Below, piece by piece: positions 44,014 to 53,030 of a stretch of 64,000 nt of DNA (positions are counted from its first letter, which is position 1; each line of letters starts with the position of its first letter). The notes under the pieces were generated by a model. That model was not told where the DNA came from. It was given only the letters and a program-made list of their open reading frames with translations, and searched no databases. The translations under genes were made by a program, and so were the position numbers. The stretch is from Candidatus Woesebacteria bacterium (GTDB lineage Bacteria > Patescibacteriota > Microgenomatia > UBA8517): the NCBI GenBank assembly GCA_963784785.1, contig CAWASW010000003.1, positions 51,216-115,215 on the forward strand. Reading direction: 5' to 3'.

Positions 44014-44409
44014 GCTTAATAGCATAGTGTGTTGATATAACAGAAAGATATAGTTGATAATACGCCTCATTTTGAGTTTGAATAGTATTCAATGGGTCAA
44101 AGAACACTTTTGTGCATATCCTGTAATAGTAAAATGTTTCTGTGGGGAAAGACTGGAACTGGAAAGAAAAGATGGTTTTGTAAAGTTTGTAAAACTTCAA
44201 GAATTTACCACAATAAAAAGAAAGATTTTAAAGTAGTTGATCTTTTCAGACAGTATATTTTGTGGGGTTTGACATATGAAATGCTGTCTTCTGTCTCAGG
44301 TTTGTCTGTAAGATATTTGGAGGGTGAATTTCATAAGTTATTGCTTCTTGATCCTCCAAAACTTCCTAGATTTGATCAAACTTTGTCTGGAAGAATTGAT
44401 ACTGCATAT

Positions 44410-46055
44410 CCTGACTTCGCCAATTAAGTGCCCTGAATAAAAGATAGAAGTTTGGTATTTTTAAGAAGTTGAAGTTGCTCTGTTGTTGGTTCTGTAAATT
44501 TTGATATTTCTTCATTTGAGATTTTGTCTTTGATAGTAATTTCTTTTAAGCTTGATAGAATTTGTAGTATCTTTTTTGTGCTTTTGTTGTTTTTAATTTC
44601 TGCATATCTTGTAATTGCAAGACTGGTAAAAACAATTAACATGTGGGTTAATATTTTTTCTTTGGCTGTATGAAATATTGGTCTAGCTTGGAGGTCTGAT
44701 TTTGTGATTCTAAATGCCTTTTCAACTTGCCAGAGTTCTTGATATTTGGTAATTATTTCTGTGTTTGTTAATTCTAGTGCATTTGTAACATAACCTTTTA
44801 AGCCTTCAAGCTGTTCTGCTTTTTTAAGTTTAGCTTCATTTATTTTCCATTCTTTTTTAATTCCCTTTTCTTTTTTTAGAAATTTGTAGTTTTTAGTTAA
44901 GTTGCTTGGATTATTTAGTGCATAATTTGCTCTTTTTAATTGTTTTTCTCTGTCTGATTTGTCTTTTGATGCTCTTTTGACTGAGTAGTTGATAATTAAA
45001 AATTTAGTTTTTGTAAGTTCAAATCTTTCTGTAGAGCCATCTATTTTAGGTACACTAATTACTTTTTCAAAAATAGTTTTGTCTAAATTACCAAGTCTTG
45101 CTCCAACTATAAACTTTAAGTTTTCTTTTTCCAATTCATCTGTATTTTTCTCACTTAACATACCAGCATCTGCAACAAGAATAATGTCTTTCAAGGAATG
45201 CTTTTTGATGAGGTCTTTCATTACAGGAAGCATTGTGTGGCCTTCAAAAGTATTTCCTTCAAAAGCCTGCATATGAACAGGGAAACCTTGTTTTGTGACT
45301 GTTAAGGAAACAACTATTTGAGGTTGATTTGATTTTTTGTCTTTTGAAAAGCCATTTTTTCTAAAATCATCTTCTGTAAAAGATTCATAATATAAAGTTG
45401 TGACATCAAAAAATAAAACTGAAATTACAGATGAAATATTTGTTTTGGCAAAATTAAATAACAAATCCTCAACTATCTCTTTGTAGCCACCATCAAAGGC
45501 TTTTTTCATGCCTCTGTAGATTTCTGTAAGTGAGTATTTGTGATTTAATTTCTCTTCAAGATAATTTCTAGTTTCAAGTTTTGAAGTTGGATTTAAAATT
45601 CTTGCAATAACAAGATCCTTAAAACAATTGTCTTTTAAGTCATTTAAACCTAAAAAATGATAGTAAAAATCAAAAAAATTGTAAGAGACAGTATCCATTA
45701 CTTTGCCAAAAGTTACCTTTGAAAGTAGCTCTTTAAGTTCAGATTGATTAAATCTGTTGTCAAAAAGTGAAATTCTTCCTTCTTTGATACGACAATCATC
45801 AATGTATTTTAAGCCTAATTTTGTAAGTTCAATTAGCTCCAACTCATTTCTTGCAGTTCCAATGTGCTTCACTATTTTTCTTCTTCCTGAAACTTTTTGG
45901 GCAACTTGAACTGATGTATTAGATTTGTTTTTGACCTTTCTTAAGTACATTCAAACCTAATTTTAGCAAATAAAACAGTAAGTGCCCTAAAGTACATAAA
46001 AATACAAACAATTAGCCTCAAGAAGTTACATAAAAACTAGGTTGGCGAAGTCAGG
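44410..46055 (-). mobile_element. IS1634-family IS copy 2 (1646 bp), nested in the IS1-like element with a 52-bp TSD (44358-44409 and 46056-46107)
   Basis: CCTGACTTCGCC IRs and an identical 508-aa transposase (44424-45950). The 52-mer 'aaaacttcctagatttgatc...gatactgcatat' is duplicated. Confidence 0.75.
44424..45950 (-). CDS. DDE transposase of IS1634-like copy 2
   Basis: 100% identical to the 23546-25072 product. Confidence 0.7.
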   Translation of the reverse strand: MYLRKVKNKSNTSVQVAQKVSGRRKIVKHIGTARNELELIELTKLGLKYIDDCRIKEGRISLFDNRFNQSELKELLSKVTFGKVMDTVSYNFFDFYYHFLGLNDLKDNCFKDLVIARILNPTSKLETRNYLEEKLNHKYSLTEIYRGMKKAFDGGYKEIVEDLLFNFAKTNISSVISVLFFDVTTLYYESFTEDDFRKNGFSKDKKSNQPQIVVSLTVTKQGFPVHMQAFEGNTFEGHTMLPVMKDLIKKHSLKDIILVADAGMLSEKNTDELEKENLKFIVGARLGNLDKTIFEKVISVPKIDGSTERFELTKTKFLIINYSVKRASKDKSDREKQLKRANYALNNPSNLTKNYKFLKKEKGIKKEWKINEAKLKKAEQLEGLKGYVTNALELTNTEIITKYQELWQVEKAFRITKSDLQARPIFHTAKEKILTHMLIVFTSLAITRYAEIKNNKSTKKILQILSSLKEITIKDKISNEEISKFTEPTTEQLQLLKNTKLLSFIQGT

Positions 46056-46868
46056 AAAACTTCCTAGATTTGATCAAACTTTGTCTGGAAGAATTGATAC
46101 TGCATATCTTTTGATTGATGGGCTTTGGTTTGGAAGATGGTTTGTCTTGATGCTGTATAGACAAAGTGGAACTTTGTACCTTTTGCATGTATCTATTGCT
46201 GGTAGAGAGGCTTCAACAAAAATAGTTAAGGATTTGAGGTTCATAAAGGAGGAATTAAAATACACATTTTCAGGCTCTGTAACAGATGGAGGAACTGCCA
46301 TTTGTTCTGCGGTTGATGAAGTGTATCCCCCACTCTCCACATCAGATATGTCTTGCTCATATGCATAGAGATATTGTAAATGCACTTGGTAGACACTCAA
46401 AAGATAGAAGAATTGAAGAATTAATAAAAATTGCAAACCACATTTGGTTCATAGAAAGTCATGAAGCTTTGAAATACTGGGAAACAATCTTAAAAGATTG
46501 GGTTAAGGCTAATTTCTTCTTTCTGAAAGAGATGAGGACAGATGATTCTGGCCACAGTTGGTATATTCATAAAGGTGTGAGAAAAGCTGTCAGGATCCTA
46601 ATTAAACTTCCAAAAACCTCATTCAAGTTTTTAGACCACCCAACTATGCCAAAAACAACAAATGAAATTGAAGCTACATTTGGGCATATAGGACAAAGAT
46701 GGTTAAGACATAAAGGCCTTAAAAAGACTCGTTGGGAAAGTTACCTTAAATGGTTTGTATATTATTACAACTTTGAAAAAATGAAGGCCGATAATAAAAC
46801 AAAACAGGATTAGAAAAACAACACATTAGTTCCATTAAGCCGAAAAATAAGAATATTAAATACTAATT

Positions 46869-48862: not shown

Positions 48863-49410
48863 TTATTCAACACTTGTAATGTCCAGATTAACTGATCCTC
48901 CCTTGGATAGATCTACGATTGAAGTTATTTTAGCCTTTTGAAAATCCCTAGTTTGAATGCCCTCAGCTGTTTTAATCCAAGCTTCACCAAGATTCATATT
49001 AGTTAAAGAAGTGGATATTATTTTTACCCCTTCGATTTTTCCGTTCATAGGAATAACTAAATCTAAATTACCTGATCCGATTGCTAGATTAAATTTGCTT
49101 GAAACATCCTGTGGTAATACTAGCCTAACATTTGAAGCGCCTGAGCTGAGAGACAACTCTTGGACATTTGTCATTTTAAGGTCTAAATCTAAGTTACCAG
49201 CACCTAAAACTAACGACACTTCTGAAAGTTTCGTATTTTTTGGAAGGTCTACGTTTCCGTTTACCTTAGATGTAGTTAGATTGAACTCATTTGAGTTTTG
49301 GACAAAACCAACTTTTGAAAAGATTTTGTGGTTAAAATATCCTGAGAGAGTAGAATCGTTTGAATTAGAAGTAAAATTTACGTTACCTGCACCACTATTG
49401 ATTTTAATTT
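48863..49410 (-). pseudogene. C-terminal portion of a secreted beta-helix (DUF4097/adhesin-like) protein gene disrupted by IS200 copy 2. The N-terminal signal-peptide exon lies at 49934-50032.
   Basis: The minus-strand frame stays open upstream of the track ORF all the way into the IS200 left end. 'MKKVFIILGILVLALIIVNGVNIKSNYSYKISD' on the other side of the IS reads straight into the IS. Confidence 0.5.
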
Positions 49411-49933
49411 TTAAATCTTCTGCACATTAATCCCCAGCCTTTAGGCTGGTGGAGCAAGTATAGTTTGTGGCATACTTGAGGGAAATGTTAAAGTACTGGC
49501 ATGGTGCACACACAAAGCACAGAATTATGATTCATTTGGTATTTTTACCAAAATACAGAAAAAGGATATTACGTGGCAAAGTAGCTACAAGACTTAAAGA
49601 CTTATTCTTCAAAGCATGTGAGGTTAACAACTGGTGGATTGAAGAAATTACAATATTGCATGATCATGTACATATGCTTATACAAATCCAACCAAACTTG
49701 TCCATCTCAAAAGTTGTTAACCAACTGAAAGGTGGTTCATCAAGAATCTTAAGGAAAGAATTTCCAGAGTTAGAAGAATTTCTTTGGGGTGACTCATTCT
49801 GGTCTGATGGCTACTTTGCAGAATCAGTGGGTGCAACAAGTTTCATCCAGGTTAAAAAATACATTAAAAATCAAGTGGAAAGTATGCCACAGAAGGGGTA
49901 AAACCATGGCATTTATGCCATGTGTTTTTTATT
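49411..49933 (+). mobile_element. IS200/IS605-family element copy 2
   Basis: Identical to copy 1 over ~523 bp. TnpA is at 49467-49901. Confidence 0.8.
49467..49901 (+). CDS. tnpA: IS200-type transposase TnpA
   Basis: Identical 144-aa product. Confidence 0.9.
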   Translation: MAYLREMLKYWHGAHTKHRIMIHLVFLPKYRKRILRGKVATRLKDLFFKACEVNNWWIEEITILHDHVHMLIQIQPNLSISKVVNQLKGGSSRILRKEFPELEEFLWGDSFWSDGYFAESVGATSFIQVKKYIKNQVESMPQKG

Positions 49934-50091
49934 TGTCTGATATTTTATATGAATAGTTTGATTTTATATTTACACCGTTAACTATAATTAGTGCTAAAAC
50001 CAATATTCCAAGAATAATAAACACCTTTTTCATATAAATATATTAACAACAATTTTAGACTAATAAAATAGACAGATCCTATTTGGTTTAA

Positions 50092-50110
50092 TTGCTCCTC
50101 GGGCACGATT
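50092..50110 (-). repeat. 19-nt duplicate of the tRNA-Asn 3' end (gaatcgtgcccgaggagca), direct repeat with 50478-50496
   Basis: Exact 19-mer match, same orientation, bracketing the GIY-YIG gene. Confidence 0.7.
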
Positions 50111-50123
50111 CCCTTCGGTAGAC

Positions 50124-50437
50124 TCAGGGTGAACTCACAACGTTCTTACTTGCCACGAGTGCTTCAGCGAACTCAGTGCAAGTATTGGTTCCCAATTTAC
50201 CGTTTATCAACATTTGCTTCTTTGCTCTGGACCAACCCTTAATTTGTCTTTCTCTTTTTGCCGCAAGATATTTACCTAGACATTTTTCAGAGTATATAAG
50301 TTTAAGATCAGAAAATTTTTTGGTAAAAAAGATTTCTTGTCTAGATGAGTTTGAAATCTTTTAACAATGTCGGGCGTTATTCCAACATAAAAAGTTTTCT
50401 GATCGCAAAGTAGCATATAAACATACCACATAGACAT
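50124..50437 (-). pseudogene. GIY-YIG nuclease family (YhbQ/UPF0213-like) gene with one frameshift
   Basis: 'MSMWYVYMLLCDQKTFYVGITPDIVKRFQTH' (GIY...YIG) and, in the next frame, 'GKYLAAKRERQIKGWSRAKKQMLI' (the conserved C-terminal motif). Confidence 0.55.
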
Positions 50438-50476
50438 TGGTTTTTGACAAGTCAGATTGCACTGAGCTTGCCGAAG

Positions 50477-50761
50477 TGCTCCTCGGGCACGATTCGAACG
50501 TGCAACCTTGATCTTACAATTCCCCTCTTGTTACCAAAAGGATTGGACTATCTCATCATCAAAAAATTGATGTCAGGTATATAGTCTCTACACATTTATC
50601 ATTCGACTTCGCTCATGACGAGTTGGTCAAACAAATTTAGCTCGGGATTGACCAAAAATTAATTTGGCGTTCCCCGAATTAGCCTGATTTTTCTTTCCCA
50701 CTTCACAATGAGATGCTGCCATCTAAAACAGGATCCTGCTCTGCCGTTGAGCTACCGAGGA
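50477..50761 (-). tRNA. tRNA-Asn(GUU) split by a ~211-nt intervening sequence in the anticodon loop (5' exon 50728-50761, 3' exon 50477-50516)
   Basis: Exons read UCCUCGG-UA-GCUC-AACGGCA-GAGC-A-GGAUC-CUGU|UAA-GAUCA-AGGUU-GCACG-UUCGAAU-CGUGC-CCGAGGA-G. The anticodon loop CUGUUAA is identical to bacterial tRNA-Asn and the T-loop is canonical. Confidence 0.6.
50517..50727 (-). ncRNA. Putative group I intron inside tRNA-Asn
   Basis: Follows an exon U, with an internal GCAG that can pair with exon CUGU (U·G at the splice site). Ends in G. Contains GGGAAAG (P-like), AAUCAGGC (Q-like), AGAGACUAUA (R-like) and GAUAGUCC (S-like) giving a GACUA/UAGUC P7. Confidence 0.5.
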
Positions 50762-50795
50762 TTATAATTAAAAAGAGCAAGGCTATTATACCATT

Positions 50796-51318
50796 TTAAA
50801 TCTTCTGCACATTAATCCCCAGCCTTTAGGCTGGTGGAGCAAGTATAGTTTGTGGCATACTTGAGGGAAATGTTAAAGTACTGGCATGGTGCACACACAA
50901 AGCACAGAATTATGATTCATTTGGTATTTTTACCAAAATACAGAAAAAGGATATTACGTGGCAAAGTAGCTACAAGACTTAAAGACTTATTCTTCAAAGC
51001 ATGTGAGGTTAACAACTGGTGGATTGAAGAAATTACAATATTGCATGATCATGTACATATGCTTATACAAATCCAACCAAACTTGTCCATCTCAAAAGTT
51101 GTTAACCAACTGAAAGGTGGTTCATCAAGAATCTTAAGGAAAGAATTTCCAGAGTTAGAAGAATTTCTTTGGGGTGACTCATTCTGGTCTGATGGCTACT
51201 TTGCAGAATCAGTGGGTGCAACAAGTTTCATCCAGGTTAAAAAATACATTAAAAATCAAGTGGAAAGTATGCCACAGAAGGGGTAAAACCATGGCATTTA
51301 TGCCATGTGTTTTTTATT
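50796..51318 (+). mobile_element. IS200/IS605-family element copy 3
   Basis: Identical to copies 1 and 2. TnpA is at 50852-51286. It lies 34 bp from the tRNA 5' end and ~25 bp from the IS481-like right IR. Confidence 0.8.
50852..51286 (+). CDS. tnpA: IS200-type transposase TnpA
   Basis: Identical 144-aa product. Confidence 0.9.
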   Translation: MAYLREMLKYWHGAHTKHRIMIHLVFLPKYRKRILRGKVATRLKDLFFKACEVNNWWIEEITILHDHVHMLIQIQPNLSISKVVNQLKGGSSRILRKEFPELEEFLWGDSFWSDGYFAESVGATSFIQVKKYIKNQVESMPQKG

Positions 51319-52398
51319 TAGCATTTTTAAATGCTGTGTATAAGTCAAGGACATTTGCGACATTCCACCTTCATCCATAAAGTACTGAAGTGGTGATTTG
51401 TTTTTAAGTGAGTGATGGGGTCTTTGGGAATTATAATAGATACTAATTTCTGTTAGCTTTTCTCCAAAGACCCCTTTGTTGTGGATGAGGTATAGATATG
51501 GATCAATAATGTCATCTTGTAATGTTCTGTTGTATCTTTCAATGAAGCCATCTACTTTTGGACAATGTGGGTAGATAAAATAATGTGGTATTTGATCTTG
51601 TTTTAACTTTTGATCAAATAAACCTAAATTTTCTTTTCCATTGTCAGATTGCCATGTTTTGATAATTCCAGGATAGACAGATTTGAAGTGATTGTAAAAA
51701 TCTGTCATGTTTTCTGAGTTTTGGTGCTTGTACATTAAGGTCATGCAGAATTTAGATTTAACATCAATTGCTGAGATAAAATAGTCTTTGACACCATCTG
51801 TGATCCTTTCTACAGTATCTGAAATTATATAACCAAAATATGTAGGTTTTGGAGAATACTTAACTCTCAATCTCTTTGTTTTAATTCTGTCCTTTTGTGC
51901 CCACTTTGAACTTGGATCATGATATATTTTTCTTGCAGTTTGATGGAAATAATTATTTCTTTTGATAATATTTCCAATTGTAGATTCTGAAACTGACTTA
52001 ACTCCATTTTCTTTGCAGTAAAAATCAAGGAACACTTTAATCTTTTCCTTTCCGATCCTAAAGTGAGCTTCTCTTTGAGATTTGATAAACTCCACAATTT
52101 TAAGCCTAGTTTGAGGTGTCCTAACATTAATAGGTCTTGTGGAGTTTGGAGCAAGAGAAGCTAAACTACCTTTTGAAACTTTTAACCTTTGTTTCCACCT
52201 TGAAATAACTTTCCTGTCTGCGCTAAAAGCTTCAATACATGCTTGTTCACCATGAACATCATAGAAATTAATTATTTTTAATCTTTGTTTTGCAACTTCA
52301 TCAATATCAAACCTTCTTAAAGATTCAATCATTTTAATCAACTTCTTTGAGCCTTTGATTCTACCAAGTTTGAAGCGTGCCTGAGAGTAGAAGTTCAT
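51298..52398 (-). CDS. DDE (rve) integrase-type transposase with an N-terminal HTH. Its last ~7 codons and stop run past the right IR into the IS200 right end, so its 3' end has been altered.
   Basis: 'ISDTV', 'WQSDNGKEN' and 'VDGFIERYNRTLQ' DDE signature, and 'YNSQRPHHSL'. Confidence 0.75.
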   Translation of the reverse strand: MNFYSQARFKLGRIKGSKKLIKMIESLRRFDIDEVAKQRLKIINFYDVHGEQACIEAFSADRKVISRWKQRLKVSKGSLASLAPNSTRPINVRTPQTRLKIVEFIKSQREAHFRIGKEKIKVFLDFYCKENGVKSVSESTIGNIIKRNNYFHQTARKIYHDPSSKWAQKDRIKTKRLRVKYSPKPTYFGYIISDTVERITDGVKDYFISAIDVKSKFCMTLMYKHQNSENMTDFYNHFKSVYPGIIKTWQSDNGKENLGLFDQKLKQDQIPHYFIYPHCPKVDGFIERYNRTLQDDIIDPYLYLIHNKGVFGEKLTEISIYYNSQRPHHSLKNKSPLQYFMDEGGMSQMSLTYTQHLKMLNKKHMA

Positions 52399-52481: not shown

Positions 52482-53030
52482 ATGAAAAATGTTGATGAAG
52501 CTAGTAAAGAACAGGCTAAAAAACTTTTTGGGAGTGAGGAAATTACAAATTTTGAAATAGGAACAACTTGCGGGCTTCAAGAAATTCACAAATATCTTTT
52601 TGATGGGTTGTACGATTTTGCAGGGGAAATACGTACTAAAAATATCAGTAAGGGAAATTTTCGTTTTGCTAATACCCTTTATTTGTCAGAAGTTTTAACA
52701 AAAATCGAAAAAATGCCTGAGGCTACTTTCGAACAAATTGTAGAAAAGTACTCAGAAATGAATATTGCCCATCCTTTTATGGAAGGTAACGGGCGTAGCA
52801 TGCGAATTTGGCTGGATTTAATCTTGAAAAAACAATTGAATAAATGTATCGATTGGCAAAAAATTGATAAAAACGAATACTTAAGCGCAATGATACGAAG
52901 CCATGTAAATAACTTAGAATTACAAGAGCTTCTTCGCACAGCACTCACTGAAAAAGTTGATGACCGTGAAGTTTTTATGAAAGGTATTGAACAGTCGTAC
53001 TATTACGAGGAACCTGATCTAACAAGATGA
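52482..53030 (+). CDS. fic: Fic/Doc-family protein (AMPylase-type)
   Basis: '[14 protein letters not shown]' is the canonical Fic motif HxFx(D/E)GNGRxxR. Confidence 0.8.

Follow-up and report, generated by a model that had tools for sequence, protein, structure and literature searches.

A compact group I intron at 35/36 in the anticodon loop of a tRNA-Asn(GUU) gene that also carries a GIY-YIG cassette at its 3' end

Run in its default mode over the whole 64-kb window (by which we mean the full stretch of 64,000 nucleotides analysed here), ARAGORN calls zero tRNAs. A preliminary description of the same DNA had read two minus-strand pieces as the exons of a tRNA-Asn(GUU) separated by a probable group I intron. 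We wondered whether the locus is indeed an interrupted tRNA-Asn gene, where precisely it is interrupted and whether the gene is live. As we argue below, the locus is very probably a functional tRNA-Asn(GUU) gene interrupted at 35/36 by a compact self-splicing group I intron.

Exons, cloverleaf and anticodon

The gene and its parts are as follows.

50761..50479, minus strand: tRNA-Asn gene including the intron, its stems read from the sequence
50728..50761, minus strand: 5' exon (tRNA positions 1-35, 3' end GGAUC-CUGU), from the sequence and from ARAGORN on the spliced product
50517..50727, minus strand: group I intron of 211 nt between anticodon-loop positions 35 and 36, placed by the RF00028 match, the U(-1)/omega-G rule and the 7-nt loop
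50479..50516, minus strand: 3' exon (UAA and the GAUCA stem strand, variable loop, T arm, acceptor 3' strand and discriminator G)

Every stem named in the preliminary description was confirmed on the minus strand: the acceptor UCCUCGG/CCGAGGA, the D arm GCUC-AACGGCA-GAGC and the T arm GCACG-UUCGAAU-CGUGC, followed by the discriminator G. The anticodon stem GGAUC/GAUCA contains a G27.A43 mismatch that is common to the orthologues; otherwise the cloverleaf is free of defects. CCA is not encoded. The gene had been given as 50477-50761, of which the start at 50761 holds; the 3' end lies at 50479, as 50477 takes in two trailer bases. Excision in silico of the 211 nt (50727-50517) left a 72-nt product that ARAGORN called tRNA-Asn(gtt), with the anticodon loop CUGUUAA (anticodon GUU).

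Bacterial AsnRS recognizes an identity set made of the anticodon GUU and the discriminator G73. The spliced product has both on a canonical cloverleaf, and its U1-A72, C2-G71 and C3-G70 pairs match the orthologues. Among the matches listed, the nearest mature tRNAs are those of loci L114 and L025 (92% and 90% identity, respectively); both retain the GGAUC/GAUCA anticodon stem and their T-stem changes are compensatory.

The register of the splice sites was determined with a rule-based exon caller, which accepts a candidate if it has acceptor and anticodon stems, a T arm and an anticodon loop of 7 nt (U33, purine at 37), with U as the last base of the exon and G as that of the intron. A single register passed, CUGU|UAA, so that the insertion site is 35/36. 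A brute-force enumeration of U/G splice sites, with ARAGORN run on each product, was discarded as too permissive: it yielded dozens of spurious tRNAs per locus.

Fold and relatives of the intron

An Rfam scan of the whole window returned one match above threshold, the expected group I intron model RF00028, over its full length (50739..50524, minus strand, model positions 1-253, 76.6 bits against a gathering score of 50, E 1.1e-17). The insert proved to lie where it had been placed, after the U of CUGU and ending in G (50727..50517). This terminal omega-G is at 50517, and the last intron position is a G in all 36 aligned relatives. The intron folds into the following helices, all on the minus strand.

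50716..50731, minus strand: P1, exon CUGU plus intron +1 (50731-50727) with the guide GGCAG (50720-50716); U35.G43 is the splice-site wobble
50696..50713, minus strand: P2 hairpin with a GUGA (GNRA) loop; compensatory changes in 7/7 pairs
50687-50683 with 50577-50573, minus strand: P3, enclosing P4-P6; 100% paired, 3/5 pairs covary
50677-50672/50647-50642, minus strand: P4, nearly invariant
50668-50663/50656-50651, minus strand: P5; 5/6 pairs covary
50634-50626/50607-50599, minus strand: P6; 6/6 pairs covary
50586-50582 (GACUA) with 50550-50546 (UAGUC), minus strand: P7, forming a pseudoknot with P3 and enclosing P8
50572-50567/50562-50557, minus strand: P8; 6/6 pairs covary
50524..50541, minus strand: P9 hairpin with a GUAA (GNRA) loop; 97% paired, 3/7 pairs covary

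No endonuclease gene lies within the intron. P1 is short, with four exon pairs and a U.G. This U.G is shared by 36/36 sequences and the four exon pairs are invariant because the tRNA requires them, while the fifth pair, between intron +1 and the base 5' of GCAG, covaries (CG 27, GC 4, AU 2, UG 2, UA 1). The guide GCAG had been predicted to pair with exon CUGU through a U.G at the splice site; the pairing stands, with the guide at intron +9 to +12 and not at +10. The R-like and S-like elements had likewise been recognized correctly as the strands of the GACUA/UAGUC P7. The P and Q assignments, on the contrary, have to be replaced: GGGAAAG, taken for P-like, is the P2 3' strand plus J2/3, and AAUCAGGC, taken for Q-like, is the P3 5' strand. 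The true P4 strands (P/Q) are UUCGGGG (50678-50672) and UCCCGAG (50647-50641).

Relatives were collected with a P7 core pattern, GTAGAGACTATANACC...GATAGTCC, searched in one genome per species, which gave at least 118 loci. The rule-based caller resolved at least 82 of these as tRNA-Asn(GUU) and at least 9 as tRNA-Asp(GUC), all interrupted at 35/36 (the Asn tally is 83 with the window included); the exons of the remaining loci, most of them at contig ends, were not resolved. Among the matches listed, the hosts are mostly Microgenomates-type Patescibacteria MAGs with a few Clostridia. The nearest relatives of both tRNA and intron in that list are Patescibacteria/Microgenomates MAGs, and the G+C content of the window is ∼33–35%. 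The nearest introns among the matches listed are those of L025, with 83.5% identity over aligned intron columns, and L114, with 77%.

We aligned 36 precursors, including the experimentally active tRNA-Asp intron of GCA_001029755.1 (L027), and scored them on a hand-drawn P1-P9 structure with P7 as a pseudoknot. Standard pairs filled 95.0% of the cells, versus 36–51% when the partners were slid by 1–3 columns. Changes on both sides were found in 31/53 pairs, and 0/500 shuffles reached any of the five measures. The invariance of P7 is uninformative because the search pattern had fixed it. The window intron aligns along its whole length with L027 and the 34 other members, and it has every invariant core column of the alignment. 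The covariation fully supports the published fold.

That fold belongs to a class already in the literature. The preliminary description knew of no group I intron in a tRNA-Asn, a claim that is superseded: Nakagawa et al. [quoted passage not shown] Precise self-splicing in vitro at 35/36 was shown for the tRNA-Asn of GCA_016700035.1 and the tRNA-Asp of GCA_001029755.1; splicing of the latter is GTP-dependent, and an omega-G to C mutant is blocked and accumulates an intermediate (PMC13011429). According to Nakagawa et al., the class was first listed, as 'Asn.4Ug', by Williams 2020 (bioRxiv 10.1101/2020.01.27.920355). No exact 16- to 24-mer match to the window intron was found in Table S3 of Nakagawa et al.; the window sequence being missing from that table and on a draft contig, it is a further member and not a published case. 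The window intron is thus a further member of a known, experimentally validated class of Patescibacteria tRNA-Asn/Asp introns at 35/36.

With the published tRNA-Asn cases the window intron shares the host tRNA, the insertion site, the CUGU/GCAG P1 with its U.G wobble, the omega-G and the conserved core AAUUCGGGG..., GUAGAGACUAUA..., GAUAGUCC; as in most members, an endonuclease gene is absent. Unlike those cases, which come from complete genomes, it lies on a draft contig with a GIY-YIG cassette at the tRNA 3' end and an IS200 copy on either side. The tRNA-Asp(GUC) intron of L027 (Candidatus Woesebacteria GW2011_GWF1_31_35) is 60.6% identical to it over 188 aligned columns. The two have an identical core, the same CUGU P1 target and the same compact P1-P9 layout with GNRA loops L2 and L9, but they differ in host tRNA, in 3' exon (CAC... 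in L027 versus UAA... in the window), in length (196 versus 211 nt) and in the P6 extension.

The classical bacterial introns, in tRNA-Leu(UAA) of cyanobacteria and plastids (34/35), tRNA-fMet (33/34), Azoarcus tRNA-Ile and Agrobacterium tRNA-Arg (both 36/37), are self-splicing; they are also small, lack an endonuclease gene, sit in the anticodon loop, build P1 from anticodon-loop nucleotides and have a 9-helix core. They differ from the window intron in host tRNA and insertion position. The compact architecture and the GNRA loops L2/L9 of the window intron superficially resemble those of the Azoarcus intron; in the literature the classical bacterial tRNA introns form subgroup IC3 whereas those of Patescibacteria are assigned to IA.

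Several observations were made along the way. In two genomes the tRNA-Asp and tRNA-Asn introns are mutual best matches: L028/L086 in the MAG JADHUT01 (83%) and L111/L117 on contig DAITMO010000001.1 (79%). Both tRNA genes offer CUGU as the target for P1, and the mutual closeness of their introns suggests that the intron may move, or that gene conversion may occur, between the two within one genome. Patescibacteria-type tRNA-Asn/tRNA-Asp introns are also borne by many MAGs whose titles read 'uncultured Gammaproteobacteria' or 'uncultured Pseudomonadales' (e.g. L079, L025, L035); the organism labels of all these records look unreliable, their biggest contigs being CPR-sized (e.g. OZ246397.1 of L079, a 615-kb chromosome). 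A T-arm-like segment containing GGTTCGA(A/G) recurs at a fixed spacing, ∼60–70 nt downstream of the tRNA-Asn 3' end, in L004, L030, L035, L042, L074, L084, L097 and L112; ARAGORN called no tRNA there, and the segment is absent from the window. A trial on viral contigs gave a sole match to the P7 pattern, on the IMG/VR contig IMGVR_UViG_3300025087_000769 (L002, 5973-6192), with the same intron core (RF00028, 60.4 bits). An HNH-type ORF C-terminus lies before this intron and apparent protein-coding sequence after it; it was set aside as a tRNA intron, being apparently within a protein-coding gene.

Promoter, surroundings and proposed splicing

The locus had been described as lying in a patch rich in mobile elements, and this was borne out. 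The promoter element and the neighbouring elements are listed here.

50785..50793, minus strand: extended -10 promoter element TGG-TATAAT, ending 24 nt upstream of the mature 5' end
49409..49934, plus strand: IS200-family copy A (tnpA 49467-49901; PF01797 Y1_Tnp, E 9e-41)
50794..51319, plus strand: IS200-family copy B (tnpA 50852-51286), its left end one base from the TG-extended -10
44424-45950, minus strand: DDE_Tnp_1 transposase, 508 aa, in a mobile-gene stretch (44092-46813)
46286-46813: IS66-like fragment
51298-52398, minus strand: rve-type integrase
52482-53030: Fic-domain gene, next after the rve-type integrase

IS200 copies A and B, 100% identical over 526 bp, stand on either side of the tRNA-Asn gene in direct orientation. 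Both contain subterminal hairpins and code for a Y1 transposase of 144 aa. In the Logan assembly of this sample, the sequence is interrupted at the IS200 repeat. The end of an IS200 copy has replaced the former sequence upstream of the tRNA -10 box. For lack of a -35, the extended -10 escaped a scan with a promoter consensus. When the 70 nt upstream were examined, the TATAAT box and a leader (...ccttgytcttt..ttataa) were found at the same distance in L114, L025, L016 and L061. This conservation with the orthologous loci makes the gene look live.

Could the locus be something other than a tRNA-Asn gene? From the raw sequence, ARAGORN in intron mode reports tRNA-Thr(tgt) i(33,211), that is, a tRNA-Thr(UGU) with its intron at 33/34, exon 1 ending in ...CU and exon 2 beginning with UGUAA. 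The check by intron detection proposed in the preliminary description thus recovers the 211-nt intron but attaches it to a tRNA that is a known artefact of the class: both ARAGORN and tFind often name such genes wrongly, as Thr(UGU) or Ala(UGC) with the intron at 33/34, and the window gene shares the Thr(UGU) miscall of the tRNA-Asn members. Sequenced spliced products place the excision at 35/36, documenting the exact two-base shift (Nakagawa et al., PMC13011429). The Thr register moves both boundaries by two bases, so that the intron would end in U, against the group I U(-1)/3' G rule, and the splice site would leave the P1 U.G pair that is invariant in 36/36 sequences; the acceptor UCC... 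and G73 are moreover of the Asn type, as in all orthologues. We regard a tRNA-Thr gene as very improbable. Fainter still, to the point of being negligible, is the idea that AT-rich DNA resembles a group I intron here by chance or through its composition, for which the low G+C content (∼35%) speaks and nothing else. The RF00028 match is far beyond chance at E 1.1e-17, more than 90 homologous introns occupy the same site with extensive compensatory changes, and this reading is already refuted by the match and the covariation.

The gene might instead be a decaying or silent copy, unexpressed or unspliced, with a functional tRNA-Asn elsewhere. Its surroundings would fit such a fate, with two identical IS200 copies on its flanks, a frameshifted GIY-YIG cassette at its 3' end and rve, DDE_Tnp_1 and IS66 transposase genes or fragments nearby; no other tRNA occurs within the 64 kb. 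On the contrary, the cloverleaf stems and the conserved positions of the intron core are all intact, the -10 box and leader are conserved among orthologues, and insertion of the cassette restores a complete tRNA 3' end. According to the literature, intron-bearing and intronless copies of the same anticodon rarely coexist in one genome. A dead copy is therefore unlikely in our view, even if the IS end upstream and the cassette at the 3' end may locally disrupt expression.

For the functional tRNA-Asn gene that we favour, we propose the following course of splicing. A precursor would be transcribed from the TGG-TATAAT promoter. Exon CUGU would pair with the intron guide GCAG as P1, U35.G marking the 5' splice site, and the core would fold through the P3-P7 pseudoknot, P4-P6, P8, P9 and the GNRA loops L2 and L9. 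Exogenous guanosine would attack after U35; the omega-G (50517) would then occupy the G site, and the freed 3'-OH of U35 would attack before U36. Ligation of CUGU to UAA would yield the CUGUUAA loop, with ...GGAUCCUGUUAAGAUCA... as the expected spliced junction. We infer catalysis by the window copy from its relatives, in which self-splicing was demonstrated experimentally.

A GIY-YIG cassette at the tRNA 3' end

What is the insertion that adjoins the gene? Directly after the discriminator base of the tRNA begins a small element, which is bracketed by a partial duplication of the tRNA gene.

50112..50478, minus strand: GIY-YIG mini-cassette of 367 nt, left end CACTTCGGCAAGCTCAGTGCA, right end ...CCCTGAGTCTACCGAAGG
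50437..~50124, minus strand: frameshifted GIY-YIG gene within the cassette (PF01541, E 6.8e-16 on the frame-repaired protein)
50095..50111, minus strand: second copy of tRNA positions 57-73, GAAUCGUGCCCGAGGAG, a 17-nt duplication with 50479-50495 that brackets the cassette

A like architecture was found in L003, L080, L088, L097, L129, L141, L161, L165, L174, L177, L185, L190, L209, L215 and L235. Such cassettes are ∼370–415 bp long, with inverted terminal repeats of ∼16 bp (CACTTCGGCAAGCTCAG... and ...CTGAGCnnGCCGAAGG) and a single GIY-YIG ORF of ∼100 aa. Over all fetched loci there are 14 distinct complete cassettes, each with the 17-nt duplication of positions 57-73, at a spacing of 371–432 nt. 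Their host tRNA genes (Asn, Asp, Gln, Glu and Ser) include both interrupted and intronless ones. Nine of the 13 GIY-YIG matches in the fetched loci lie at most ∼110 nt downstream of an intron-bearing tRNA, on the same strand. The protein family comprises more than 500 clusters at E <= 1e-5, each of ∼100 aa with a GIY-YIG domain only.

The left-end 21-mer occurs in metagenomes at least 134 times, on at least 120 stretches (L130-L249). At least 27 of the 134 occurrences listed start exactly after the discriminator of a tRNA (Asn, Gln, Arg, Glu, Ile, Ser or Tyr), whether intron-bearing or not, and a GIY-YIG ORF follows in at least 33. Many copies were seen alone: 87 of the 134 listed have no tRNA, GIY-YIG gene or duplication nearby (e.g. 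L144 7-142, L147, L163). Some of these solo 21-mers are preceded by TTCGA, the 5' half of the T loop, and one contig holds six tandem 23-nt units.

L097 (filled) and L035 (empty) differ by an exact 409-nt insertion, made up of 392 nt and the 17-nt duplication; a filled/empty pair that differs by so precise an insertion indicates that the cassette is independent of the intron. Collaborative homing, in which the GIY-YIG gene would serve the intron as a free-standing homing endonuclease, was rejected because the cassette is found at many intronless tRNAs. An integrase-type genomic island, which would account for the repeat of the tRNA 3' end, was rejected as well: the element lacks an integrase, measures ∼370–390 bp, has inverted repeats at its termini and is invariably bracketed by a duplication of 17 nt. 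Our literature searches turned up no description of a tRNA-3'-end GIY-YIG cassette.

Taken together, these observations lead us to suggest, tentatively and at somewhat less than even confidence, an undescribed family of mobile mini-cassettes that encode a GIY-YIG protein only, insert after tRNA discriminators and duplicate positions 57-73, leaving the tRNA intact. The target tRNAs probably include, in addition, Arg, Ile and Tyr.

The intron result matters mainly for annotation. Because ARAGORN misses the gene by default and misnames it Thr(UGU) in intron mode, genomes of this kind seem to be without tRNA-Asn and completeness estimates suffer. Earlier work has made this point before; what is added here is scale, with over 90 additional tRNA-Asn and tRNA-Asp cases from species-representative genomes. 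The cassette raises a different prospect. If the GIY-YIG protein makes a staggered cut that is specific to tRNA genes, the cassette would amount to a homing element of a new kind, site-specific and transposon-like. Should it truly be undescribed, it would represent a new route by which a selfish nuclease gene enters essential tRNA genes without harm.
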